The notes under the pieces are model-generated. The model ran no database searches. It saw nothing but the letters and a program-made list of their open reading frames with translations, and was not told the origin of the DNA. Shown here in pieces: positions 8,178-13,218 of a stretch of 64,000 nt of DNA (positions are counted from its first letter, which is position 1; the number at the start of each line of letters is the position of its first letter). This DNA is from Candidatus Eiseniibacteriota bacterium (lineage in GTDB: Bacteria > Eisenbacteria > RBG-16-71-46). The stretch spans positions 1,888,001 through 1,952,000 of the forward strand of contig CAVQXP010000004.1 in NCBI GenBank assembly GCA_963717935.1, given 5' to 3'. The position numbers and the translations under genes were made by a program.

Positions 8178-8610
8178 ATGCCCACCTACGACTACCGGTG
8201 CCGGAAGTGCGGGCACCAGTTCGAGCTCTTCCACGGCATCAAGGACGACGTGCCGAAGCGCTGCCCGAAGTGCAGGGGAGGGGCGCAGCGCGTCCCGGCG
8301 GGCGGGGCGGGCGTGCTCTTCAAGGGGAGCGGTTTCTACGTCACCGACTACCGGAGCAAGGCGTACAAGGAGAAGGCGCGCCAGGAGAAGTCCGCGGGTG
8401 GCGGAAGCGGCTCGACGGGTGGCGGAAGCGGCTCGACGGGTGGCGGAAGCGGCTCGACGGGTGGCGGGAGCGGCTCGACGGGTGGCGGGAGCGGCTCGAC
8501 GGGCGGCGGGAGCGGCTCGAGGGGCGGCGGGAGCGGCTCGACGGGCGGCGGGAGCAGCTCGCGGGTGGGGGAGTGGTCCGACGGGCGGCAAGACGCCGTC
8601 GGGCGGCTGA
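8178..8610 (+). CDS. FmdB-family zinc-ribbon putative regulatory protein with Gly/Ser repeat tail (probable frameshift ~8562; the called frame would run to 8738)
   Basis: MPTYDYRCRKCGHQFE...CPKC...FKGSGFYVTDY signature; SD GGAGG; the alternate frame ends GSGPTGGKTPSGG-TGA at 8610, just before the next ATG. Confidence 0.85.
8397..8561 (+). repeat. Tandem 21-bp repeat, ~8 copies (GGGSGST)
   Basis: ggtggcggaagcggctcgacg x3, then variants ggtggcgggagcggctcgacg / ggcggcgggagcggctcga(c/g)g. Confidence 0.95.
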
Positions 8611-8622
8611 GAGCCGGCGCGG

Positions 8623-10512
8623 ATGGCCTTCGGTCTGGTGCAGGCTGTGCTGGATTCGCACGGGCTCGGGAGCGGGGGCCCGGAGCGTGGCCCGGATGCG
8701 GGAACGCGGCTCGTCGATCAGGTGCTGCTCGGCAGTGAACAGGCACCCCTCGTGGTCGCACTCCTGAGGCGCTCGGGCGTCGAGTCCGTGTGCGTGAGCC
8801 CCGCCCTGGTGGATCCCGGGTGTGGTGGGAACGGAGGGGAGGACGAGGCCGCGGGCGATTGGCGCCGCGCCGCGCTCGGACTCGGCCTGCTGCTTCCGCG
8901 GCCCGGGCACGGCGACATGAGGGTGCTCCACCGGGAACGGCTGGCGGCGCCGGGGCGCCTGGCGCTGTGCGCGGGACGGCTCGCGGACTGCGGAGCGCTG
9001 GGCATGCTGGCGGTGGAGACGGACGCGCTGGTCGCGGCGGCCGTGCTGGCGGGGGGGCCGTTCGCCCCGGGGGCGCCCCGGGTGCTCGGCGTGGAGCTTG
9101 CGGGGGCGTTGGCGCCTGCGGCGGGAGGTGTGGATCTCGCGCTGGCGTTGCTGTCGCGGTTGCGCGAAGTGAGTGAAGCGGTGGAGGTGCTCGAGTTCGG
9201 GGGGGCCGGAGTGGGGACGCTGGCGATGACGGAGCGGATGAGCGCTGCCTGGCTCCTGGGGGAGGCCGGGTTGCTGGCGATGTTCCCGTCGGACGACGTG
9301 ACCCGGGCGGAGCTGGCTGCGCTGGGGCGCGATCAGGACTGGCGCCGCCTCGATGCGACCGGCGAGGGCGATGGCGCGGTGTGGCGCGTGGACCTCGAGA
9401 GTCTCGATCCGCTGGTCGCCCCGATGGAGGAGCTCTGGGGTTCGCGCCGCGCGAGCGCGTTCGCGGGGACTCCGGTCGAGCGCGTGCTGGTGGGGCCGGC
9501 CGCCACGCTCGCCGATCTCGCGCGGCTTGGCGCGCGGTTCGAGGGCCAGCGCGTGCACGAGCGCGTCGAGTGCACGGTCGTGGTGGGGAGCCGCACCGTG
9601 CTCGACCGTGTCGCGGCGTCGGGTGTCGCGCAGCAGTTGACCGTCGCCGGCGTGCGCGTTACGGAGGGACAGGTGGCGGCCCACGCCGCGGGTTCGGGCA
9701 CCGGGCTGTGCTTTGGCGTGCCGCGGGAGGCCGTGGCGTCCGGTCGCGCGCGCTGGCTGGTGGCGGGCGTGGAATGCTGCGCGGCCGCGGCGCTGGCGGG
9801 GACCGTGACGCGACCCGGGCGCGACGGCGAGCCGGTGGTCCTCGAAACAGGGGACGGGCTCGACACGGATCCGTGGATGTCCGGAGGCGCGGGACGGCAA
9901 GCGCCGGCGCCGGCCGCGGAGCAGCCGGGGCGCGGGGCGCCGCCCGCTCCGCGCGGTCCGTTCCGTGGCGAAGTGCTCGCGGTGTTGGGCGACGAGTTGG
10001 AGTGCGCACGGTTGCTCGCTCCGGGCGCGCGCCTCGAGGGTCTGCGCGGCCGGCTGCGCTCGCTCGCGGGGCAACTGCTGGCGGGCATCGATCCGGGCTT
10101 CCCGGAACGTGCCCGTGAGCGGGGTGGGGGCTTCGTGGTGGCGGGGACGGGGTTCGCCCGCGGGGAGCCGTGTGCGGCCGTGGCTCTCTGCCTGGCTGAA
10201 TCGTCCGTCCGGGCCGTGCTGGCGCGTTCGTACGCGCCCGGGGCGGCGCAGACGCTGGTGAACGCGGGGGTGATGCCGTTGCTGCTGACGCAGGAGGGGA
10301 TGCCGGGGCCGCTCGAGCGTGGCGATGAAGTCGAACTGCCGGGGCTGCCGGGGACGCTCGTGCCGGCGCACCCGCTCACGGCCAGGAACCTGACGCGCGG
10401 CACGCACGTCACGCTGGGGCACGACTTGTCGGAACGGGCGATCGCAGTGCTGCGCGCAGGCGGGCTCCTGCCGTTCGTCACTGGCCGCGCGTGGAGCGCG
10501 GGGAGGCACTGA
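8623..10512 (+). CDS. Aconitase-superfamily protein, full length (three domains plus swivel) with degenerate active site
   Basis: Residual motifs RPGHG..LHRER..PG, GALGMLAV, GVELAG, LEFGGAGV, MFPSDDVT, VDLESLDPLVA, GGGFVVAG, AVLARSYA, LVNAGVMPL, LRAGGLL; 629-aa intact ORF. Confidence 0.8.
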   Translation: MAFGLVQAVLDSHGLGSGGPERGPDAGTRLVDQVLLGSEQAPLVVALLRRSGVESVCVSPALVDPGCGGNGGEDEAAGDWRRAALGLGLLLPRPGHGDMRVLHRERLAAPGRLALCAGRLADCGALGMLAVETDALVAAAVLAGGPFAPGAPRVLGVELAGALAPAAGGVDLALALLSRLREVSEAVEVLEFGGAGVGTLAMTERMSAAWLLGEAGLLAMFPSDDVTRAELAALGRDQDWRRLDATGEGDGAVWRVDLESLDPLVAPMEELWGSRRASAFAGTPVERVLVGPAATLADLARLGARFEGQRVHERVECTVVVGSRTVLDRVAASGVAQQLTVAGVRVTEGQVAAHAAGSGTGLCFGVPREAVASGRARWLVAGVECCAAAALAGTVTRPGRDGEPVVLETGDGLDTDPWMSGGAGRQAPAPAAEQPGRGAPPAPRGPFRGEVLAVLGDELECARLLAPGARLEGLRGRLRSLAGQLLAGIDPGFPERARERGGGFVVAGTGFARGEPCAAVALCLAESSVRAVLARSYAPGAAQTLVNAGVMPLLLTQEGMPGPLERGDEVELPGLPGTLVPAHPLTARNLTRGTHVTLGHDLSERAIAVLRAGGLLPFVTGRAWSAGRH

Positions 10513-10513
10513 G

Positions 10514-11539
10514 ATGCTCATCGATCAGGCGCGCATCCATGTGCTCTCCGGGCCGGGCGGGGAAGGCTGCGTGAGCTTCCGCAGGGAGAAGTTCGTGCCC
10601 AAGGGCGGGCCGGACGGGGGCGATGGCGGGCGTGGCGGCAGCGTGTTCCTCGAGGTGGACGCGCACGTGCGCACGCTGCTTGACTGCCGTGAACAGCCCC
10701 GGTACCGTGCCGACAGTGGCCGTCACGGCTCGGGCAACAGGCGCTCGGGCAAGGACGGGCGGGATCTCGTGGTGCGCGTGCCCCGGGGGACGGTGGTGCG
10801 GGATCCGGCGACCGGCGAGGTGCTGGTGGATCTGGTTCGCGCCGGGGAGCGCTTCGCGGCCGCACGTGGCGGACGCGGTGGACGCGGCAATGCGCATTTC
10901 GCGACCTCGACGCACCAGGCGCCGCGGCACGCCGAGCCCGGCGGGCCCGGCGAGGAGCGCTGGCTCGAGCTGGAGCTGAAGCTCATCGCCGACGTGGGCT
11001 TCGTGGGCCTGCCGAACGCGGGCAAGTCGACGCTGCTCGCGAGGGTGTCGAAGGCGCGGCCACGCATCGCGCCGTACCCGTTCACCACGCTGGAGCCGCA
11101 CCTGGGGATCGTGGTGCTCGACGACGAGCGCCAGTTCGTTGCTGCGGACCTGCCGGGGCTGATCGCGGGCGCGCACGAGGGCAAGGGGCTCGGCCATCAG
11201 TTCCTGCGCCACATCGAGCGTACGCGGGTGCTGTTGTTCATGGTGGAGGCGGGCGCGGAGGATCCGGCGCGCGACCTCGAGGTCCTCGAGCGGGAGGTGT
11301 CGTTGCACGGTCCGGCGTTGCTGGAGAAGCCCCGGCGCGTGGTGGTCACCAAGGCCGACCTGCTGCCGTCGGAGGACCACGCGGCTGCCTGCGCGAGCCT
11401 CGGACTCCCGGATGCGCGGCTGATCAGCGCGCAGAGTGGCGAGGGGCTGGCCCCGCTGCTCGAGGATCTCTGGGGGCTGATCGCCCCGAGCCTGGCGGCG
11501 GAGGACGCCGCCGCCGCGGACGAGGGCGAAGATGGGTGA
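10514..11539 (+). CDS. obgE: GTPase Obg/CgtA (short C-terminus)
   Basis: SFRREKFVPKGGPDGGDGG, DVGFVGLPNAGKSTL, YPFTTL, DLPGLI, TKAD. Confidence 0.97.
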   Translation: MLIDQARIHVLSGPGGEGCVSFRREKFVPKGGPDGGDGGRGGSVFLEVDAHVRTLLDCREQPRYRADSGRHGSGNRRSGKDGRDLVVRVPRGTVVRDPATGEVLVDLVRAGERFAAARGGRGGRGNAHFATSTHQAPRHAEPGGPGEERWLELELKLIADVGFVGLPNAGKSTLLARVSKARPRIAPYPFTTLEPHLGIVVLDDERQFVAADLPGLIAGAHEGKGLGHQFLRHIERTRVLLFMVEAGAEDPARDLEVLEREVSLHGPALLEKPRRVVVTKADLLPSEDHAAACASLGLPDARLISAQSGEGLAPLLEDLWGLIAPSLAAEDAAAADEGEDG

Positions 11540-12263
11540 CCAGAAGCACTCCCCGGGAAAGACCTACGACCCGCTGAACACACGCAGCCTGGCGGCCAAG
11601 CGCGAGTACGTGCGCGGCCTCGAGCAACGCCGCGACACCGAGGCCATGTCGCTGCTGGTCGAGTGCCTGTGCGACGAGTCCTGGTACCTGCGGCAACTGG
11701 CCGAGCAGGCCTTCCTGAACGTCGGCAGCGAAGGGGCCCCGATGCTCCTGCCGCTGCTGGAGGAGGGGCTGTGGTTCACGCGCACCAGCGCCGCCGGCAT
11801 CCTCGGGAAGCTGGGCTACCCGCCCGCCGTGCCGGGCCTGCTGCGCCTCACCGAGGACAAGAACCGCACCGTGGCCGAGGCCGCGTGCGAGGCGCTGCTC
11901 GCCGTCGGCCGCTCGAGCGGCGCGGTGCGGATCGCCCACGTCCTGCACCGCGTGCCGCCCGATGCCCGGCGCCGCCGGCTCGATGATCTCACGGCGCGCG
12001 ACGCGGCCCTGGCCGAGCGCATCCAACGCCTGATGACGAACGATGAGCTCATGGCGGTCGAGGATGCCGAGCTGCTCACGGACGACCACCCGCTGGTGCG
12101 GGCGAGCGAGGAAGGCTTCGAGTGGGAACTGCTCACCAGCCCGTCCGTGCCGAAGGTGCCCGCCGGGCCCGGGCCCCAGTCGGGGCCGCAAGGAACGTCC
12201 TCCCCGCAGTCCCAGGCCGAGCCCCCCGGGCGCACGGAGGATGACGGCGGTCCCACCGCTTGA
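11532..12263 (+). CDS. HEAT-repeat protein
   Basis: Repeated L..LL.D..W..R..A..AL..LG pattern (DESWYLRQLAEQAF, EGLWFTRTSAAGILGKLG, DKNRTVAEAACEAL); overlaps obgE. Confidence 0.75.
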   Translation: MGDQKHSPGKTYDPLNTRSLAAKREYVRGLEQRRDTEAMSLLVECLCDESWYLRQLAEQAFLNVGSEGAPMLLPLLEEGLWFTRTSAAGILGKLGYPPAVPGLLRLTEDKNRTVAEAACEALLAVGRSSGAVRIAHVLHRVPPDARRRRLDDLTARDAALAERIQRLMTNDELMAVEDAELLTDDHPLVRASEEGFEWELLTSPSVPKVPAGPGPQSGPQGTSSPQSQAEPPGRTEDDGGPTA

Positions 12264-13218
12264 AGCGCGGGTGCTCTTCTCACGCTCGCCCGCCGCAGCC
12301 GACCCGGAGTCGGCCTGGCAGGCTGCCGGGTCCGGGGAGCGCGTCGCGGCGGACCGTGCGGCGCGGGCGCTCGAACGATTGGGCGTGCGCGCTCCGCTGG
12401 CCGGCGAGCCCGACTACCCCGCGGCCCTGCGCGATCTTCCCGACGCTCCGCGCGTGCTGTTCGTGCGTGGCGTCCTGCCGGAGCGCGGCCGGTCGGTCGC
12501 CGTGGTCGGTTCGCGGGCAGCCACGCCGTACGGGATGGCGCAGGCGGCGGCCCTGGGTGCGGACCTCGCTCGCCTGGGCTACACCGTGGTGAGCGGTCTG
12601 GCGCGCGGAATCGACGGGGCCGCGCATCGCGGTGCGCTCGAGGCGGGTGGCGCGAGCGTGGCGGTGCTTGCCGGCGGCCTCGACGCGATCACGCCACGGC
12701 ATCACGCCGAGTTGGCCGAGTCGCTGTGCGCGCGTGGTGGGTTGCTGAGCGAGCGGGCGAGCGGGCCGCCGCCGTTCCGCGGGACGTTCCTCGAGCGCAA
12801 CCGGCTCATCGCTGCGCTGTCTGCCGCGACCGTGGTGGTCGAGGCGGCGAGGCGCAGCGGCGCGCTCGCGACGGCGGCCTGCGCGCGCCGGCTCTGCCGG
12901 CCGGTACTCGCCGTGCCCGGTGACGTGGACCGCGAGACGAGCCGTGGCACGCACGCACTGATCCGCGCCGGAGCCGCGCTGTGCGAGAGCGCGGGTGACG
13001 TGCTGAGGGTCCTCGGCGGTGGTCCGCGCCGTGGGGGCGAGGCGCCACCGGAGGCGCGGCTGGGTGCGGTGCTGCGGGCCGAGCCGCGCGGCGCGGCCGA
13101 ACTCGCTGCGGCAGCGGGCCTCGCGGTGGACGAGACGCTCGCGCTGCTGCTGCAGTTCGAGTGGGCGGGCGCGGCCGTAGCGCTGCCGGGACAGCGCTGG
13201 CGGAGGGCCCCATCGTGA
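12241..13218 (+). CDS. dprA: DNA-protecting protein DprA/Smf (short N-terminus)
   Basis: DYPAALRDLPDAP..LFVRG, VAVVGSR.ATPYG, VVSGLARGIDGAAH, FLERNRLIAALS, SGALATA; C-terminal winged-helix-like segment. Confidence 0.92.
   Translation: MTAVPPLEARVLFSRSPAAADPESAWQAAGSGERVAADRAARALERLGVRAPLAGEPDYPAALRDLPDAPRVLFVRGVLPERGRSVAVVGSRAATPYGMAQAAALGADLARLGYTVVSGLARGIDGAAHRGALEAGGASVAVLAGGLDAITPRHHAELAESLCARGGLLSERASGPPPFRGTFLERNRLIAALSAATVVVEAARRSGALATAACARRLCRPVLAVPGDVDRETSRGTHALIRAGAALCESAGDVLRVLGGGPRRGGEAPPEARLGAVLRAEPRGAAELAAAAGLAVDETLALLLQFEWAGAAVALPGQRWRRAPS

Follow-up and report, generated by a model that had tools for sequence, protein, structure and literature searches.

The 629-aa protein encoded between fmdB and obg in the window, i.e. 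the whole stretch of 64,000 nucleotides of Candidatus Eiseniibacteriota DNA that was analysed, is best explained as a folded, non-catalytic pseudoenzyme of the aconitase superfamily, kept by selection across one Eisenbacteria-like family, a reading to which a probability of roughly 0.7 can be given. Among the features by which a pseudoenzyme is operationally recognised, homology to an enzyme family combined with lost catalytic residues, and purifying selection, are found here. The sequence-only reading of this DNA had proposed a retained pseudoenzyme rather than a decaying pseudogene, and this view is borne out by the wide presence of the gene in relatives, its fixed synteny, its low dN/dS and the confidently predicted fold of its product.

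Gene context and family membership

The pseudoenzyme gene is an uninterrupted ORF opening with ATG (Table 1), the start of which is overlapped over 116 nt by the tail of the upstream FmdB ORF, while an SD-like motif within its last codons and a single intervening nucleotide precede the obg start at its other end. This 1-nt spacing also occurs in loci L006-L009 and, judging from the arrangement of the junction, translation of obg may be coupled to that of the pseudoenzyme. The GC contents at the three codon positions (0.82/0.58/0.87) follow a coding-like pattern. The protein has a pI of 5.4, a net charge of -12 and not a single Lys among its 629 residues, the lack of Lys and the raised GC at second codon positions being what a drift of the majority of sites under GC pressure would produce. 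Acidity extends to the whole set of 19 orthologs, window protein included, with pI values of 5.3-6.5 and net charges from -4 to -17.

The window yields many long spurious ORFs, among which a 726-aa antisense ORF lies over the same DNA (8341-10521, minus strand). As a real gene the latter was rejected, since it has no family match, against homology, fold and orthologs for the plus frame, and it is a high-GC shadow frame.

Table 1. Features of the pseudoenzyme locus, with positions in the window
Feature	Position	Strand	Description	Basis
FmdB-family zinc-ribbon ORF, 5' neighbour	8178..8738	+	residues 1-52 matched	TIGR02605, 62.5 bits
Aconitase-fold pseudoenzyme gene	8623..10512	+	629 aa; ATG start; TGA stop 10510-10512	ORF, homology, predicted fold, orthologs
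Residues 1-400, aconitase domains 1-3 (large-subunit-like)	8623..9822	+	dN/dS 0.24-0.30	Z 36.9 to 4kp1
Residues 289-296, LVGPAATL (ex-IGSCTNSS)	9487..9510	+	first cluster Cys lost, 2-residue deletion	L022 alignment
Residues 348-354, EGQVAAH (ex-SCGPCIG)	9664..9684	+	second and third cluster Cys lost	
Residues 401-445, variable inter-domain linker	9823..9957	+	dN/dS 0.64-1.03	pLDDT <50 at 405-444
Residues 446-629, swivel (LeuD-like) domain 4	9958..10509	+	dN/dS 0.17-0.25	Z 18.5-20.4 to LeuD
Residues 567-577, GDEVELPGLPG	10321..10353	+	acidic Pro-rich clade signature	family consensus GDELExPGLPE
Pseudoenzyme/obg junction	10501..10516	+	SD-like GGGAGG in last codons, TGA, 1 nt, obg ATG at 10514	direct sequence read
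obg (GTPase), 3' neighbour	10514..11539	+		ORF list

As had been noticed by eye, the ORF follows a single-chain aconitase of about 640 aa from end to end, since the NCBIfam model NF005558 (PRK07229 aconitate hydratase) aligns from residues 5 to 620 of the protein with positions 5-642 out of 647 of the model (E 1.3e-55). The score of 189.2 bits is below the curated cut-off of 612, i.e. the equivalog threshold, and that for TIGR01342 is similarly below threshold (184.8 bits vs. 719). Of the two Pfam families against which a profile search had been proposed, PF00330 (Aconitase) is matched at 75.3 bits, above its gathering cut-off of 28.7 (E 6.6e-21), and PF00694 gave no match to the window protein at E <= 1. 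The ~890-aa AcnA architecture is not present, the AcnA models reaching only 52.7 bits vs. 905 (NF009520), 45.4 vs. 686 and 41 vs. 945, with matches that span only residues ~124-239, a segment to which the PDB sequence matches to IRP1 are also limited. Scores likewise fall below the cut-offs for Aconitase X (PF04412, 12.5 bits vs. 31.5, E 0.058), PRK00402 (73.9 vs. 385) and LEUD_arch (34 vs. 109).

In a FastTree tree with long branches, the window protein nests inside the PRK07229 family, and descent from a PRK07229/mitochondrial-type aconitase is the best explanation for its origin. Fifty-two fold-defining columns, with the same Gly, Pro or Asp, are common to the degenerate clade formed with its orthologs and to 35 canonical members, and 77 columns conserved in the canonical members vary freely in the degenerate clade. 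Taken with the fold and the conservation in relatives, this homology excludes a chance origin of the aconitase resemblance.

Predicted fold, lost ligands and the domain-4 signature

Although built from an alignment of only 19 sequences, the AF2 model of the window protein reaches a pLDDT of 82.4 and a pTM of 0.84; in the comparison with known aconitases suggested beforehand, it aligns to mitochondrial aconitase (1aco/7acn) with a Z of ~33.6 over ~582 residues (Foldseek E 3.7e-36), i.e. a confident aconitase fold. The four-domain architecture of aconitases, with three alpha/beta domains, a linker and a LeuD-like swivel domain, is found on this model: residues 4-401 align to the IPM isomerase large subunit 4kp1 (Z 36.9, VIA-align) and residues ~443-629 to LeuD-type small subunits, while the linker in between is the stretch of highest entropy among the orthologs. 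Domain 4 is the most constrained part of the pseudoenzyme (Table 1). The structural match to AcnX (Z 17, ~340 residues) remains well under those to aconitases and IPM isomerases.

In aconitases, the catalytic Ser belongs to the GSSRE motif, the Asp and His residues to DH, DSH and GICHQ, and substrate binding involves the Arg and Asn of NRNF as well as the Gln and Asp of QDATG. With the motif positions taken from the canonical in-clade enzyme L022 and their roles from the aconitase literature, the L-INS-i alignment sets the L022 motifs GSDSHT, IGSCTNSS, SCGPCIG, NRNFKGR, DNITTDDI and GQGSSREHA against CAGR-LAD, VGP--AAT, EGQVAAH, VPREAV, LGDELECARL and ARGEPCAAV, respectively, in the window protein. 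The substitutions listed in the sequence-only reading are thereby reproduced, with a reservation for the DH motif said to read DP, where the His is indeed absent but MAFFT puts the DP two columns away from the canonical DH.

None of the three [4Fe-4S] Cys ligands is present in the window protein or in any of the 18 orthologs, the column of the first one being a gap in 19/19 degenerate rows, and the Asp, His, Ser and Arg residues of the active site are absent from the same proteins; neither the cluster Cys nor the catalytic Ser were recovered at shifted positions in the alignment. The Cys of a GLCFG segment, which an approximate MAFFT alignment in faster mode puts in the column of the third ligand, is aligned by L-INS-i with the beta-strand after the loop and not with a ligand. 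Out of 21 functional positions, the window protein retains a single one, an Asp that belonged to the DNITTD motif, and at most 7 are kept in 54 of 82 full-length matches. Since cluster Cys and catalytic residues are gone, the name "aconitate hydratase" automatically given to the degenerate proteins at JGI is a mis-annotation.

In the signature of domain 4, all 19 orthologs have G567 and E571, and D568 and E569 are conserved to 90% or more. Conservation of E569, E571, P573 and P576 is peculiar to the degenerate clade and does not extend to the 35 canonical enzymes. It is in domain 4 that the positions conserved specifically in this clade are concentrated, and the polar ones among them (R448, E569, E571, R588 and H600) all lie there, away from the cleft motifs. 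As fold-defining residues shared with canonical enzymes make up most of what the clade conserves, these Arg, Glu and His residues may form a structural salt-bridge network rather than an interface.

Retention, selection and origin within the family

In a phylum-wide genome search, strong full-length matches were found in about 80 of the 88 species genomes in the taxonomic family of the source genome. Five of the eight family genomes with weak cases were examined, the other three being G122, G148 and G156: the 3' end of the gene is cut off at a contig edge next to obg in two of them, and three have no obg match at E <= 1e-40. The synteny with obg anticipated across relatives holds in 18/18 ortholog loci, with fmdB upstream and obg homologs downstream of the pseudoenzyme gene, and the same gene order is observed in a named Ca. 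Eisenbacteria MAG. While the downstream Obg orthologs stay 66-92% identical, the identity of the pseudoenzyme drops to ~35-40% within this one family. Homology runs end to end in one frame in all 18 orthologs, down to 31-38% identity, and 73 distinct gap intervals among the 19 orthologs are in-frame. A frame change inside the gene, corresponding to either a real disruption or a MAG error, was found in three family genomes (G016, G019 and G105), so that some lineages may be able to do without the gene; in G019, it falls exactly in the linker, mimicking a two-subunit layout.

For the three closest pairs, the dN/dS of the pseudoenzyme, as estimated by NG86 with dS underestimated in this 73% GC genome, amounts to 0.275 (bootstrap 0.216-0.360), 0.324 and 0.249, with 0/1000 bootstraps above 0.47. 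These values are 2-3 times those of its neighbours obg and pta (0.10-0.22), and selection on the pseudoenzyme is purifying but clearly relaxed. At 0.64-1.03, the linker is effectively neutral and serves as an internal control; compared with it, the low overall dN/dS indicates that the amino-acid sequence is selected specifically in the folded parts. Relatives devoid of the gene, stops or a dN/dS near 1, by which the claim of retention could have been refuted, are not the pattern observed.

The question whether a canonical aconitase is encoded elsewhere in the genome, as raised by the sequence-only reading, can be answered positively: L001 matches TIGR01340 at 963 bits for a cut-off of 825, and this normal aconitase does the TCA-cycle job. 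In the source genome too, the canonical aconitase gene is followed by a gene of the IDH family. Eleven of 89 family genomes contain an IDH-like gene, the immediate 3' neighbour of the pseudoenzyme gene in 10/10 assessable cases, which suggests a duplicated aconitase-IDH pair. In sister families, fmdB is directly upstream of obg (4/4 genomes). The pseudoenzyme gene would have entered the fmdB-obg string in the family ancestor as one half of such an aconitase and IDH-like pair and, as it persists where the IDH-like half was lost, the protein presumably has a use of its own.

Partly degenerate relatives suggest an order for the loss of function. The protein P0108, for which a single-protein scan returned one locus (L067), branches as the sister of the degenerate clade (FastTree 100*). 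VDH and GADSH are intact in it, the cluster motifs read IGSYAGSS and CGPSIG, and GDELEIPGLPE is already in place in domain 4. In some relatives from other phyla, such as P0133 (labelled Sumerlaeota), three Cys are kept and other residues are changed. Along the lineage leading to the pseudoenzyme, loss of the cluster probably preceded that of the other catalytic residues.

Candidate roles and comparison with known systems

Several readings other than a folded binding protein have to be weighed. A sensor of tricarboxylates or other metabolites, using the old pocket without catalysis as proposed in the sequence-only reading, appears improbable. While the fold and the inter-domain cleft are preserved in the model, and while 16/19 rows retain the Asp from DNITTD and about half of them the Arg from GSSRE, the 21 former ligand and catalytic positions are at least as variable as average columns (mean entropy of 2.01 vs. 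1.78 for all columns, with 1072 of 10000 random sets as variable). In addition, the substrate-binding Arg of NRNF and the Ser, His and Asp sites have different replacements in different genera, and no new conserved polar cluster was found in domains 1-3 when the columns of the degenerate clade were compared with the canonical ones; a re-fixed ligand pocket was rejected on the variability of the 21 positions. Very improbable is a functionless relic, the frame of which would stay open through the 73% GC or through a need for transcriptional or translational coupling to obg. The fast evolution under relaxed constraint, the lack of Lys, the frame changes in three family genomes, the SD-like motif of obg inside the 3' end of the gene and the commonness of long spurious ORFs in the window, as exemplified by the antisense one, would all fit such a relic, but a dN/dS of 0.25-0.32 with no bootstrap reaching 0.47, as against the near-neutral linker, the in-frame gaps, the one-frame homology in every ortholog and a confident fold obtained from so few sequences speak against it. 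Coupling to obg is not the reason for retention either, as another gene separates the pseudoenzyme gene from obg in 10 genomes. Most improbable among these readings is an enzyme with new chemistry, either a cluster-independent (de)hydratase or isomerase, or a protein with a new metal site made of non-canonical Cys. The 11 Cys of the window protein, including a CC pair, were counted much as reported beforehand, and relatives from other phyla such as P0133, which alter other residues and keep three Cys, would indicate a subfamily exploring new active sites; yet conservation stays below 90% in every Cys column of the 19-ortholog alignment, the number of Cys per protein varying from 5 to 12, the CC pair aligns with small hydrophobic helix positions of canonical enzymes (L022), and the clade-specific polar residues do not surround the cleft motifs. 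As the pocket drifts and no Cys is conserved, a new metal site and a ligand sensor are both unlikely, and a metal site built from the 11 Cys was rejected for want of any conserved Cys column.

Ranked next after protein binding, though still unlikely, is a constitutively apo aconitase acting with an open cleft as an RNA-binding post-transcriptional regulator, in analogy with IRP2 or with cluster-free AcnA and CitB. Cluster-free aconitases from a number of bacteria are reported to bind mRNAs, among them AcnA from Mycobacterium tuberculosis (PMC7527780) and the aconitase of Staphylococcus aureus (PMC11317140). The model also aligns to the structures of IRP1 and IRP2 (Z 24.5 and 19.5), and a total loss of the cluster would lock an apo-like state. 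On the other hand, the known RNA binders belong to the ~890-aa AcnA/IRP class or are AcnB proteins, the 640-aa PRK07229 class not being known to bind RNA, and the AcnA models reach only 45-53 bits for cut-offs of 686-905. The acidity of all 19 orthologs and the absence of Lys in the window protein disfavour RNA binding, without excluding it, and the AF2 model resembles holo-aconitase in its closed form (Z 33.6) more than it does the open IRE complex of IRP1 (Z 18.5), which may however reflect a training bias.

Regarding the mode of action of the folded, non-catalytic pseudoenzyme, binding is favoured over chemistry because the pocket has not been re-fixed, no Cys is conserved and the clade-specific positions cluster in domain 4. 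It is tentatively proposed that the protein works by binding, most probably to a protein partner via domain 4 and a putative acidic GDELExPGLPE surface. A complex prediction for the pseudoenzyme with Obg gave a score of 0.00 and no answer, which speaks neither for nor against their binding. More speculative, and somewhat unlikely as it stands, is the broader view of a bacterial counterpart of IRP2 reached by another route, i.e. a cluster-less protein arising from a duplicated aconitase-IDH operon and surviving its enzymatic partner by having turned into a regulatory or scaffolding subunit, with a newly evolved acidic surface on domain 4. Such a subunit could tune a TCA aconitase/IDH metabolon, take part in an Obg-linked control of the ribosome or of the stringent response, or bind RNA, and intermediates of its decay, with the cluster lost first, would still be living in metagenomes.

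Aconitases are the classic example of an enzyme turned regulator once the Fe-S cluster is gone, CitB and IRP2 being known as RNA-binding cluster-free members. To our knowledge, all the bacterial proteins characterised so far are active enzymes for which the cluster-free form is reversible. In the present family, the absence of the cluster is written into the gene and has been maintained by selection in no fewer than 28 genera of a lineage without cultured members; as far as titles and abstract openings tell, no published account of a bacterial aconitase paralog that lacks the cluster for genetic reasons was found. Should a partner or an RNA target be identified, nature itself would have provided the experiment that shows what this scaffold can do without its cluster. 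Besides, the "aconitate hydratase" labels from public pipelines would lead to overcounting the TCA-cycle capacity in metabolic reconstructions from MAGs.

Among known systems, the PRK07229/TIGR01342 enzymes (~640-650 aa) are the closest in length, four-domain order, fold and the 52 shared columns, but the pseudoenzyme lacks their three cluster Cys, Asp-His pairs, catalytic Ser and substrate Arg and scores 189 bits for a cut-off of 612. Domain by domain, the best structural matches are to LeuC/LeuD and HacA/HacB (Z 36.9 for the large-subunit part and 18.5-20.4 for the small one), which are made of two subunits, whereas the present protein is a single chain without cluster ligands and far below the cut-offs of these families. 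IRP2 (IREB2) is a vertebrate aconitase paralog without aconitase activity, retained for a non-catalytic role; it shares with the pseudoenzyme the superfamily, this non-catalytic retention and a structural match (6vcd, Z 19.5). Unlike IRP2, a member of the ~900-aa AcnA/IRP class in which the cluster cysteines are retained and which recognises IRE RNA, the pseudoenzyme is of the 640-aa class, acidic and altogether deprived of these cysteines. With apo AcnA, AcnB and CitB, it has in common a cluster-free aconitase fold and, by its proposed function, binding instead of catalysis; those proteins are active enzymes for which the cluster-free form is reversible, whereas the loss is here genetic and permanent, and a separate active aconitase has been kept.

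Homology, predicted fold and lost residues

On the evidence of profile matches, the 629-aa product of the ORF at 8623..10512 (+ strand, ATG start) is a true aconitase homolog, as the sequence-only reading had held: PF00330 (Pfam) scores 75.3 bits (cut-off 28.7) and NF005558 (NCBIfam, PRK07229 'aconitate hydratase') aligns residues 5-620 with positions 5-642 of its 647, at 189 bits, far under the curated cut-off of 612. A PDB sequence search matched IRP1 and mitochondrial aconitase, only over residues ~88-239. The window, of ~73% GC, contains many long shadow ORFs, as usual for high-GC DNA, and a 726-aa antisense ORF without family match was rejected as one of these.

In the AF2 model built from a 19-sequence alignment (mean pLDDT 82.4, pTM 0.84), low confidence is confined to residues 18-28, 69-76 and 405-444 (the linker) and to the C-terminal 7. 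The model matches mitochondrial aconitase by Foldseek (E 3.7e-36) and VIA-align (Z 33.2-33.7, 578-589 residues aligned, rmsd ~5.0-5.4); in VIA-align, residues 4-401 also match the IPM isomerase large subunit (Z 36.9) and residues 443-629 LeuD-type subunits (Z 18.5-20.4), and Z to IRP1 is 24.5 for the closed form and 18.5 for the open, IRE-bound form. The nearest ESM Atlas cluster is aconitase-family, with Candidatus Eiseniibacteriota as its commonest known phylum.

Functional residues were checked by aligning the window protein and 18 orthologs with L022, a canonical PRK07229-type enzyme found in the same class (genome G038), from which the motif positions were taken: QDATG, VDHN, GICHQ, GSDSHT, IGSCTNSS, SCGPCIG, NRNFKGR, DNITTDDI and GQGSSREHA, which we take from the aconitase literature to hold cluster ligands, catalytic and substrate-binding residues. 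The three cluster Cys are absent from every degenerate sequence, the first through a 2-residue deletion (VGP--AAT), as are the active-site Asp/His/Ser residues and the NRNF Arg, the GSSRE Ser being mostly absent. All the motif substitutions named from the sequence alone were recovered on this alignment, and the window protein retains 1/21 scored functional positions. The alternative metal site once suggested is disfavoured, no Cys column being invariant or ≥90% conserved among the 19 orthologs, whose Cys counts run from 5 to 12. The same residue is conserved in degenerate and canonical groups at 52 columns, made up of Gly, Pro and Asp that define the fold. Only a few positions are conserved in the degenerate clade alone (W378, R448, G502, E569, E571, P573, P576, R588, L590, H600); except for W378, they all lie in domain 4, the swivel (LeuD-like) domain (residues 446-629), where they include an acidic, Pro-rich stretch, GDELExPGLPE (residues 567-577). 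Together these residues could amount to a patch on the surface or to a network of structural salt bridges.

That the window protein serves as the cell's aconitase is ruled out, since its genome encodes elsewhere a mitochondrial-type aconitase (L001; TIGR01340, 963 bits against a cut-off of 825), the canonical enzyme that was to be looked for, and a LeuC/HacA-type large subunit (L002).

Constraint, distribution and neighbourhood

In the three closest ortholog pairs, dN/dS (NG86, 1000 bootstraps) is 0.275 (95% interval 0.216-0.360), 0.324 (0.257-0.409) and 0.249 (0.195-0.317), with 0/1000 replicates above 0.47. By region, it is 0.24-0.30 for residues 1-400, 0.17-0.25 for domain 4, the most constrained domain, and 0.64-1.03 for the disordered linker (401-445), which provides an internal neutral control. 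All 73 distinct internal gap intervals of the 19-sequence alignment are in frame. Codon-position GC is 0.82/0.58/0.87, that of the neighbours being ~0.76-0.79/0.50-0.51/0.89-0.92.

Constraint is nonetheless relaxed: in the three pairs above, dN/dS is 0.10-0.14 for obg and 0.18-0.22 for pta, identity across the window genome's family (f1) is 31-46% versus 66-79% for Obg, and 77 columns conserved among 35 canonical enzymes vary freely in the degenerate group. The window protein has 0 Lys and 58 Arg in 629 residues, which fits K-to-R drift under GC pressure with residue identity weakly constrained; Lys counts are 0-6 in orthologs and 36 in L022. A frame change inside the gene occurs in three f1 genomes (G016, G019, G105), and could be a real split or disruption or a MAG error. 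In G019 (L065, G019:C4:62545-66400), the frame switches within the variable linker with both halves open, leaving separate large-subunit-like and small-subunit-like ORFs; G016 has its change at L066 (G016:C30:1964-5800) and G105 looks similar.

Stop-free full-length orthologs were found in a search of 41 related genomes, identity being 82, 75, 58, 57 and 53% for members of the genus and 35-46% for f1 members from other genera. Searching 206 genomes of the phylum with a profile (tallies include G026, which has weak matches only and supports no claim made here) gave strong matches in ~80/88 other f1 genomes and, outside f1, only in G038 and G060, both canonical enzymes. Of the eight f1 genomes with weak matches, five were looked into: in G121 and G150 the gene's 3' end lies at a contig edge, adjoining obg, and in G116, G136 and G151 no obg match was obtained at E ≤ 1e-40 with the query used, the locus being not assessable there. 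An FmdB-type zinc-ribbon gene upstream and obg downstream flank the gene in 18/18 ortholog loci, pta being present in 16/18 and a HEAT-repeat gene in 14/18, with misses due to flank ends or an intervening gene; a named Candidatus Eisenbacteria MAG (L067) has the identical order. The intervals, the distribution and this synteny sustain the earlier view of a retained pseudoenzyme rather than a decaying pseudogene. In sister families (G025, G027, G028, G038), fmdB lies immediately upstream of obg, so that the pseudoenzyme was inserted into, or retained only in, the f1 string, and its adjacency to obg is weak evidence of a functional link. Database labels include 'hypothetical protein [Candidatus Eisenbacteria bacterium]' (P0041) and, for many such proteins at JGI, 'aconitate hydratase'.

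Regarding the flanks, the FmdB-family ORF (8178-8738) overlaps the pseudoenzyme start by 116 nt (8623-8738) in another frame, and its (GGGSGST)n tail is encoded by a 21-nt tandem repeat (8395-8589, 9.4 copies, 91% match) with codon-position GC of 0.69/0.89/0.74, differing from neighbour genes. As more distant relatives have a short fmdB (~70-100 aa matched) ending ahead of the aconitase-like start, the long tail may be a genus-specific extension or run-on. Downstream, a conserved HEAT-repeat-like ORF (11532-12263; weak CpcE-like match only, 29.5 bits) shares its first 8 nt with the end of obg and is followed by an ORF (12043-13218) that is DprA-like by eye only.

Proposed gene pair and possible decay intermediates

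At three loci, a ~1.1 kb gene of the isocitrate/homoisocitrate dehydrogenase family lies between pseudoenzyme and obg, its best match, PRK08997, reaching 375-382 bits where the cut-off is 510. VRENTEDLY, HKANIMK and NLYGDIVSD motifs, presumably catalytic, are visible.

IDH-like paralogs located between the pseudoenzyme and obg
Feature	Locus	Coordinates	Strand	Basis
IDH-like paralog	L017	372-1529	-	PRK08997 match
IDH-like paralog	L019	362-1537	-	PRK08997 match
IDH-like paralog	L024	341-1477	-	PRK08997 match

The three are 68-77% identical mutually, the adjoining pseudoenzymes only ~35%. Also found in G121, G101, G102, G108, G109, G112, G149 and G163, the paralog occurs in 11/89 f1 genomes (8/28 genera), immediately downstream of the pseudoenzyme in 10/10 genomes where a single contig carries both (G109 has them on separate contigs). 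As its identity to each of the two IDH-family genes in the window genome is no more than 40-44%, the paralog is absent from that genome, where L001 is followed by the IDH-family gene L069 as a canonical acn-icd pair (G000:C4:1532869-1536238). The simplest reading is that an aconitase-IDH pair, duplicated or acquired, settled in the fmdB-obg interval; its aconitase half would have lost its chemistry and been kept almost everywhere, and the catalytic-looking IDH half lost repeatedly.

Among 82 full-length matches in a 5.8-billion-protein collection, 54 retain ≤7/21 functional positions, 28 retain ≥18 and none lies between. Searching 1.84 billion representatives with a profile yielded 13,714 matches at E ≤ 1e-3; the best 150 included 142 new proteins, of which, by a fast, approximate alignment, 78 retain 0-7 positions, 37 retain 9-17 (some being fragments) and 27 retain 18-21. 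In a FastTree of 114 rows, to be read with caution for its long branches, one clade of 64 rows (support 100) unites the strongly degenerate sequences, all 19 family orthologs among them, with the exception of P0142, P0176, P0138, P0149 and P0168. P0108 is the sister of this clade; beyond it, partly degenerate sequences form a grade, two of them labelled Candidatus Hydrogenedentota and Candidatus Sumerlaeota. P0108 retains VDH and GADSH, reads IGSYAGSS and CGPSIG (1/3 Cys) and already has GDELEIPGLPE and VVRNLTRG, a motif state which suggests loss of the cluster as the first step and an early origin of the domain-4 signature.

Partly degenerate metagenome PRK07229-type proteins (P0108, P0131-P0133, P0139, P0141, P0147, P0148, P0151, P0162, P0169, P0181) retain 9-17/21 positions, some with all three Cys and without the swivel-domain Ser/Arg, and could be enzymes that have taken on a new function or pseudoenzymes as well. 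Besides, Ser replaces the first cluster Cys (GSSANPG or GSSVNS for GSCTNSS), with the C..C pair kept, in otherwise canonical PRK07229-type 'aconitate hydratases' (P0054, P0059, P0067-P0069, P0071, P0072, P0074, P0075, P0079, P0083), several labelled Kitasatospora, Amycolatopsis or Kibdelosporangium.

Candidate roles

The analysis shows the window protein to be folded, under selection and non-catalytic, with the aconitase fold; beyond this, a binding role is most likely. Its target would most likely be a protein partner; this carries a probability of roughly one in three, and is favoured because the strongest constraint and, W378 apart, the only clade-specific conserved residues lie in domain 4 and are acidic, the whole protein is acidic and the gene's ancestry is tied to an IDH partner, with the TCA metabolon as background. 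An IRP2-like, putative RNA-binding role comes next and is rather unlikely. A ligand sensor built on the old pocket, raised by the sequence-only reading, is improbable, the pocket having not been re-fixed: mean entropy at the 21 former functional positions is 2.01 versus 1.78 over all columns, 1072/10000 random sets being at least as variable. Also improbable are a new enzyme and, despite the relaxed constraint, a functionless relic; retention of the dead half through repeated loss of the IDH half argues that it has its own use.

Regarding known systems, assemblies of aconitase with IDH have been modelled (PDB 9a4j, 'Integrative model of ACNA-IDH'). As a non-catalytic member of the aconitase superfamily, the window protein is notable in that the cluster has been lost completely and genetically, the gene is retained throughout the family, intermediates survive and an aconitase-IDH gene pair has apparently decayed.
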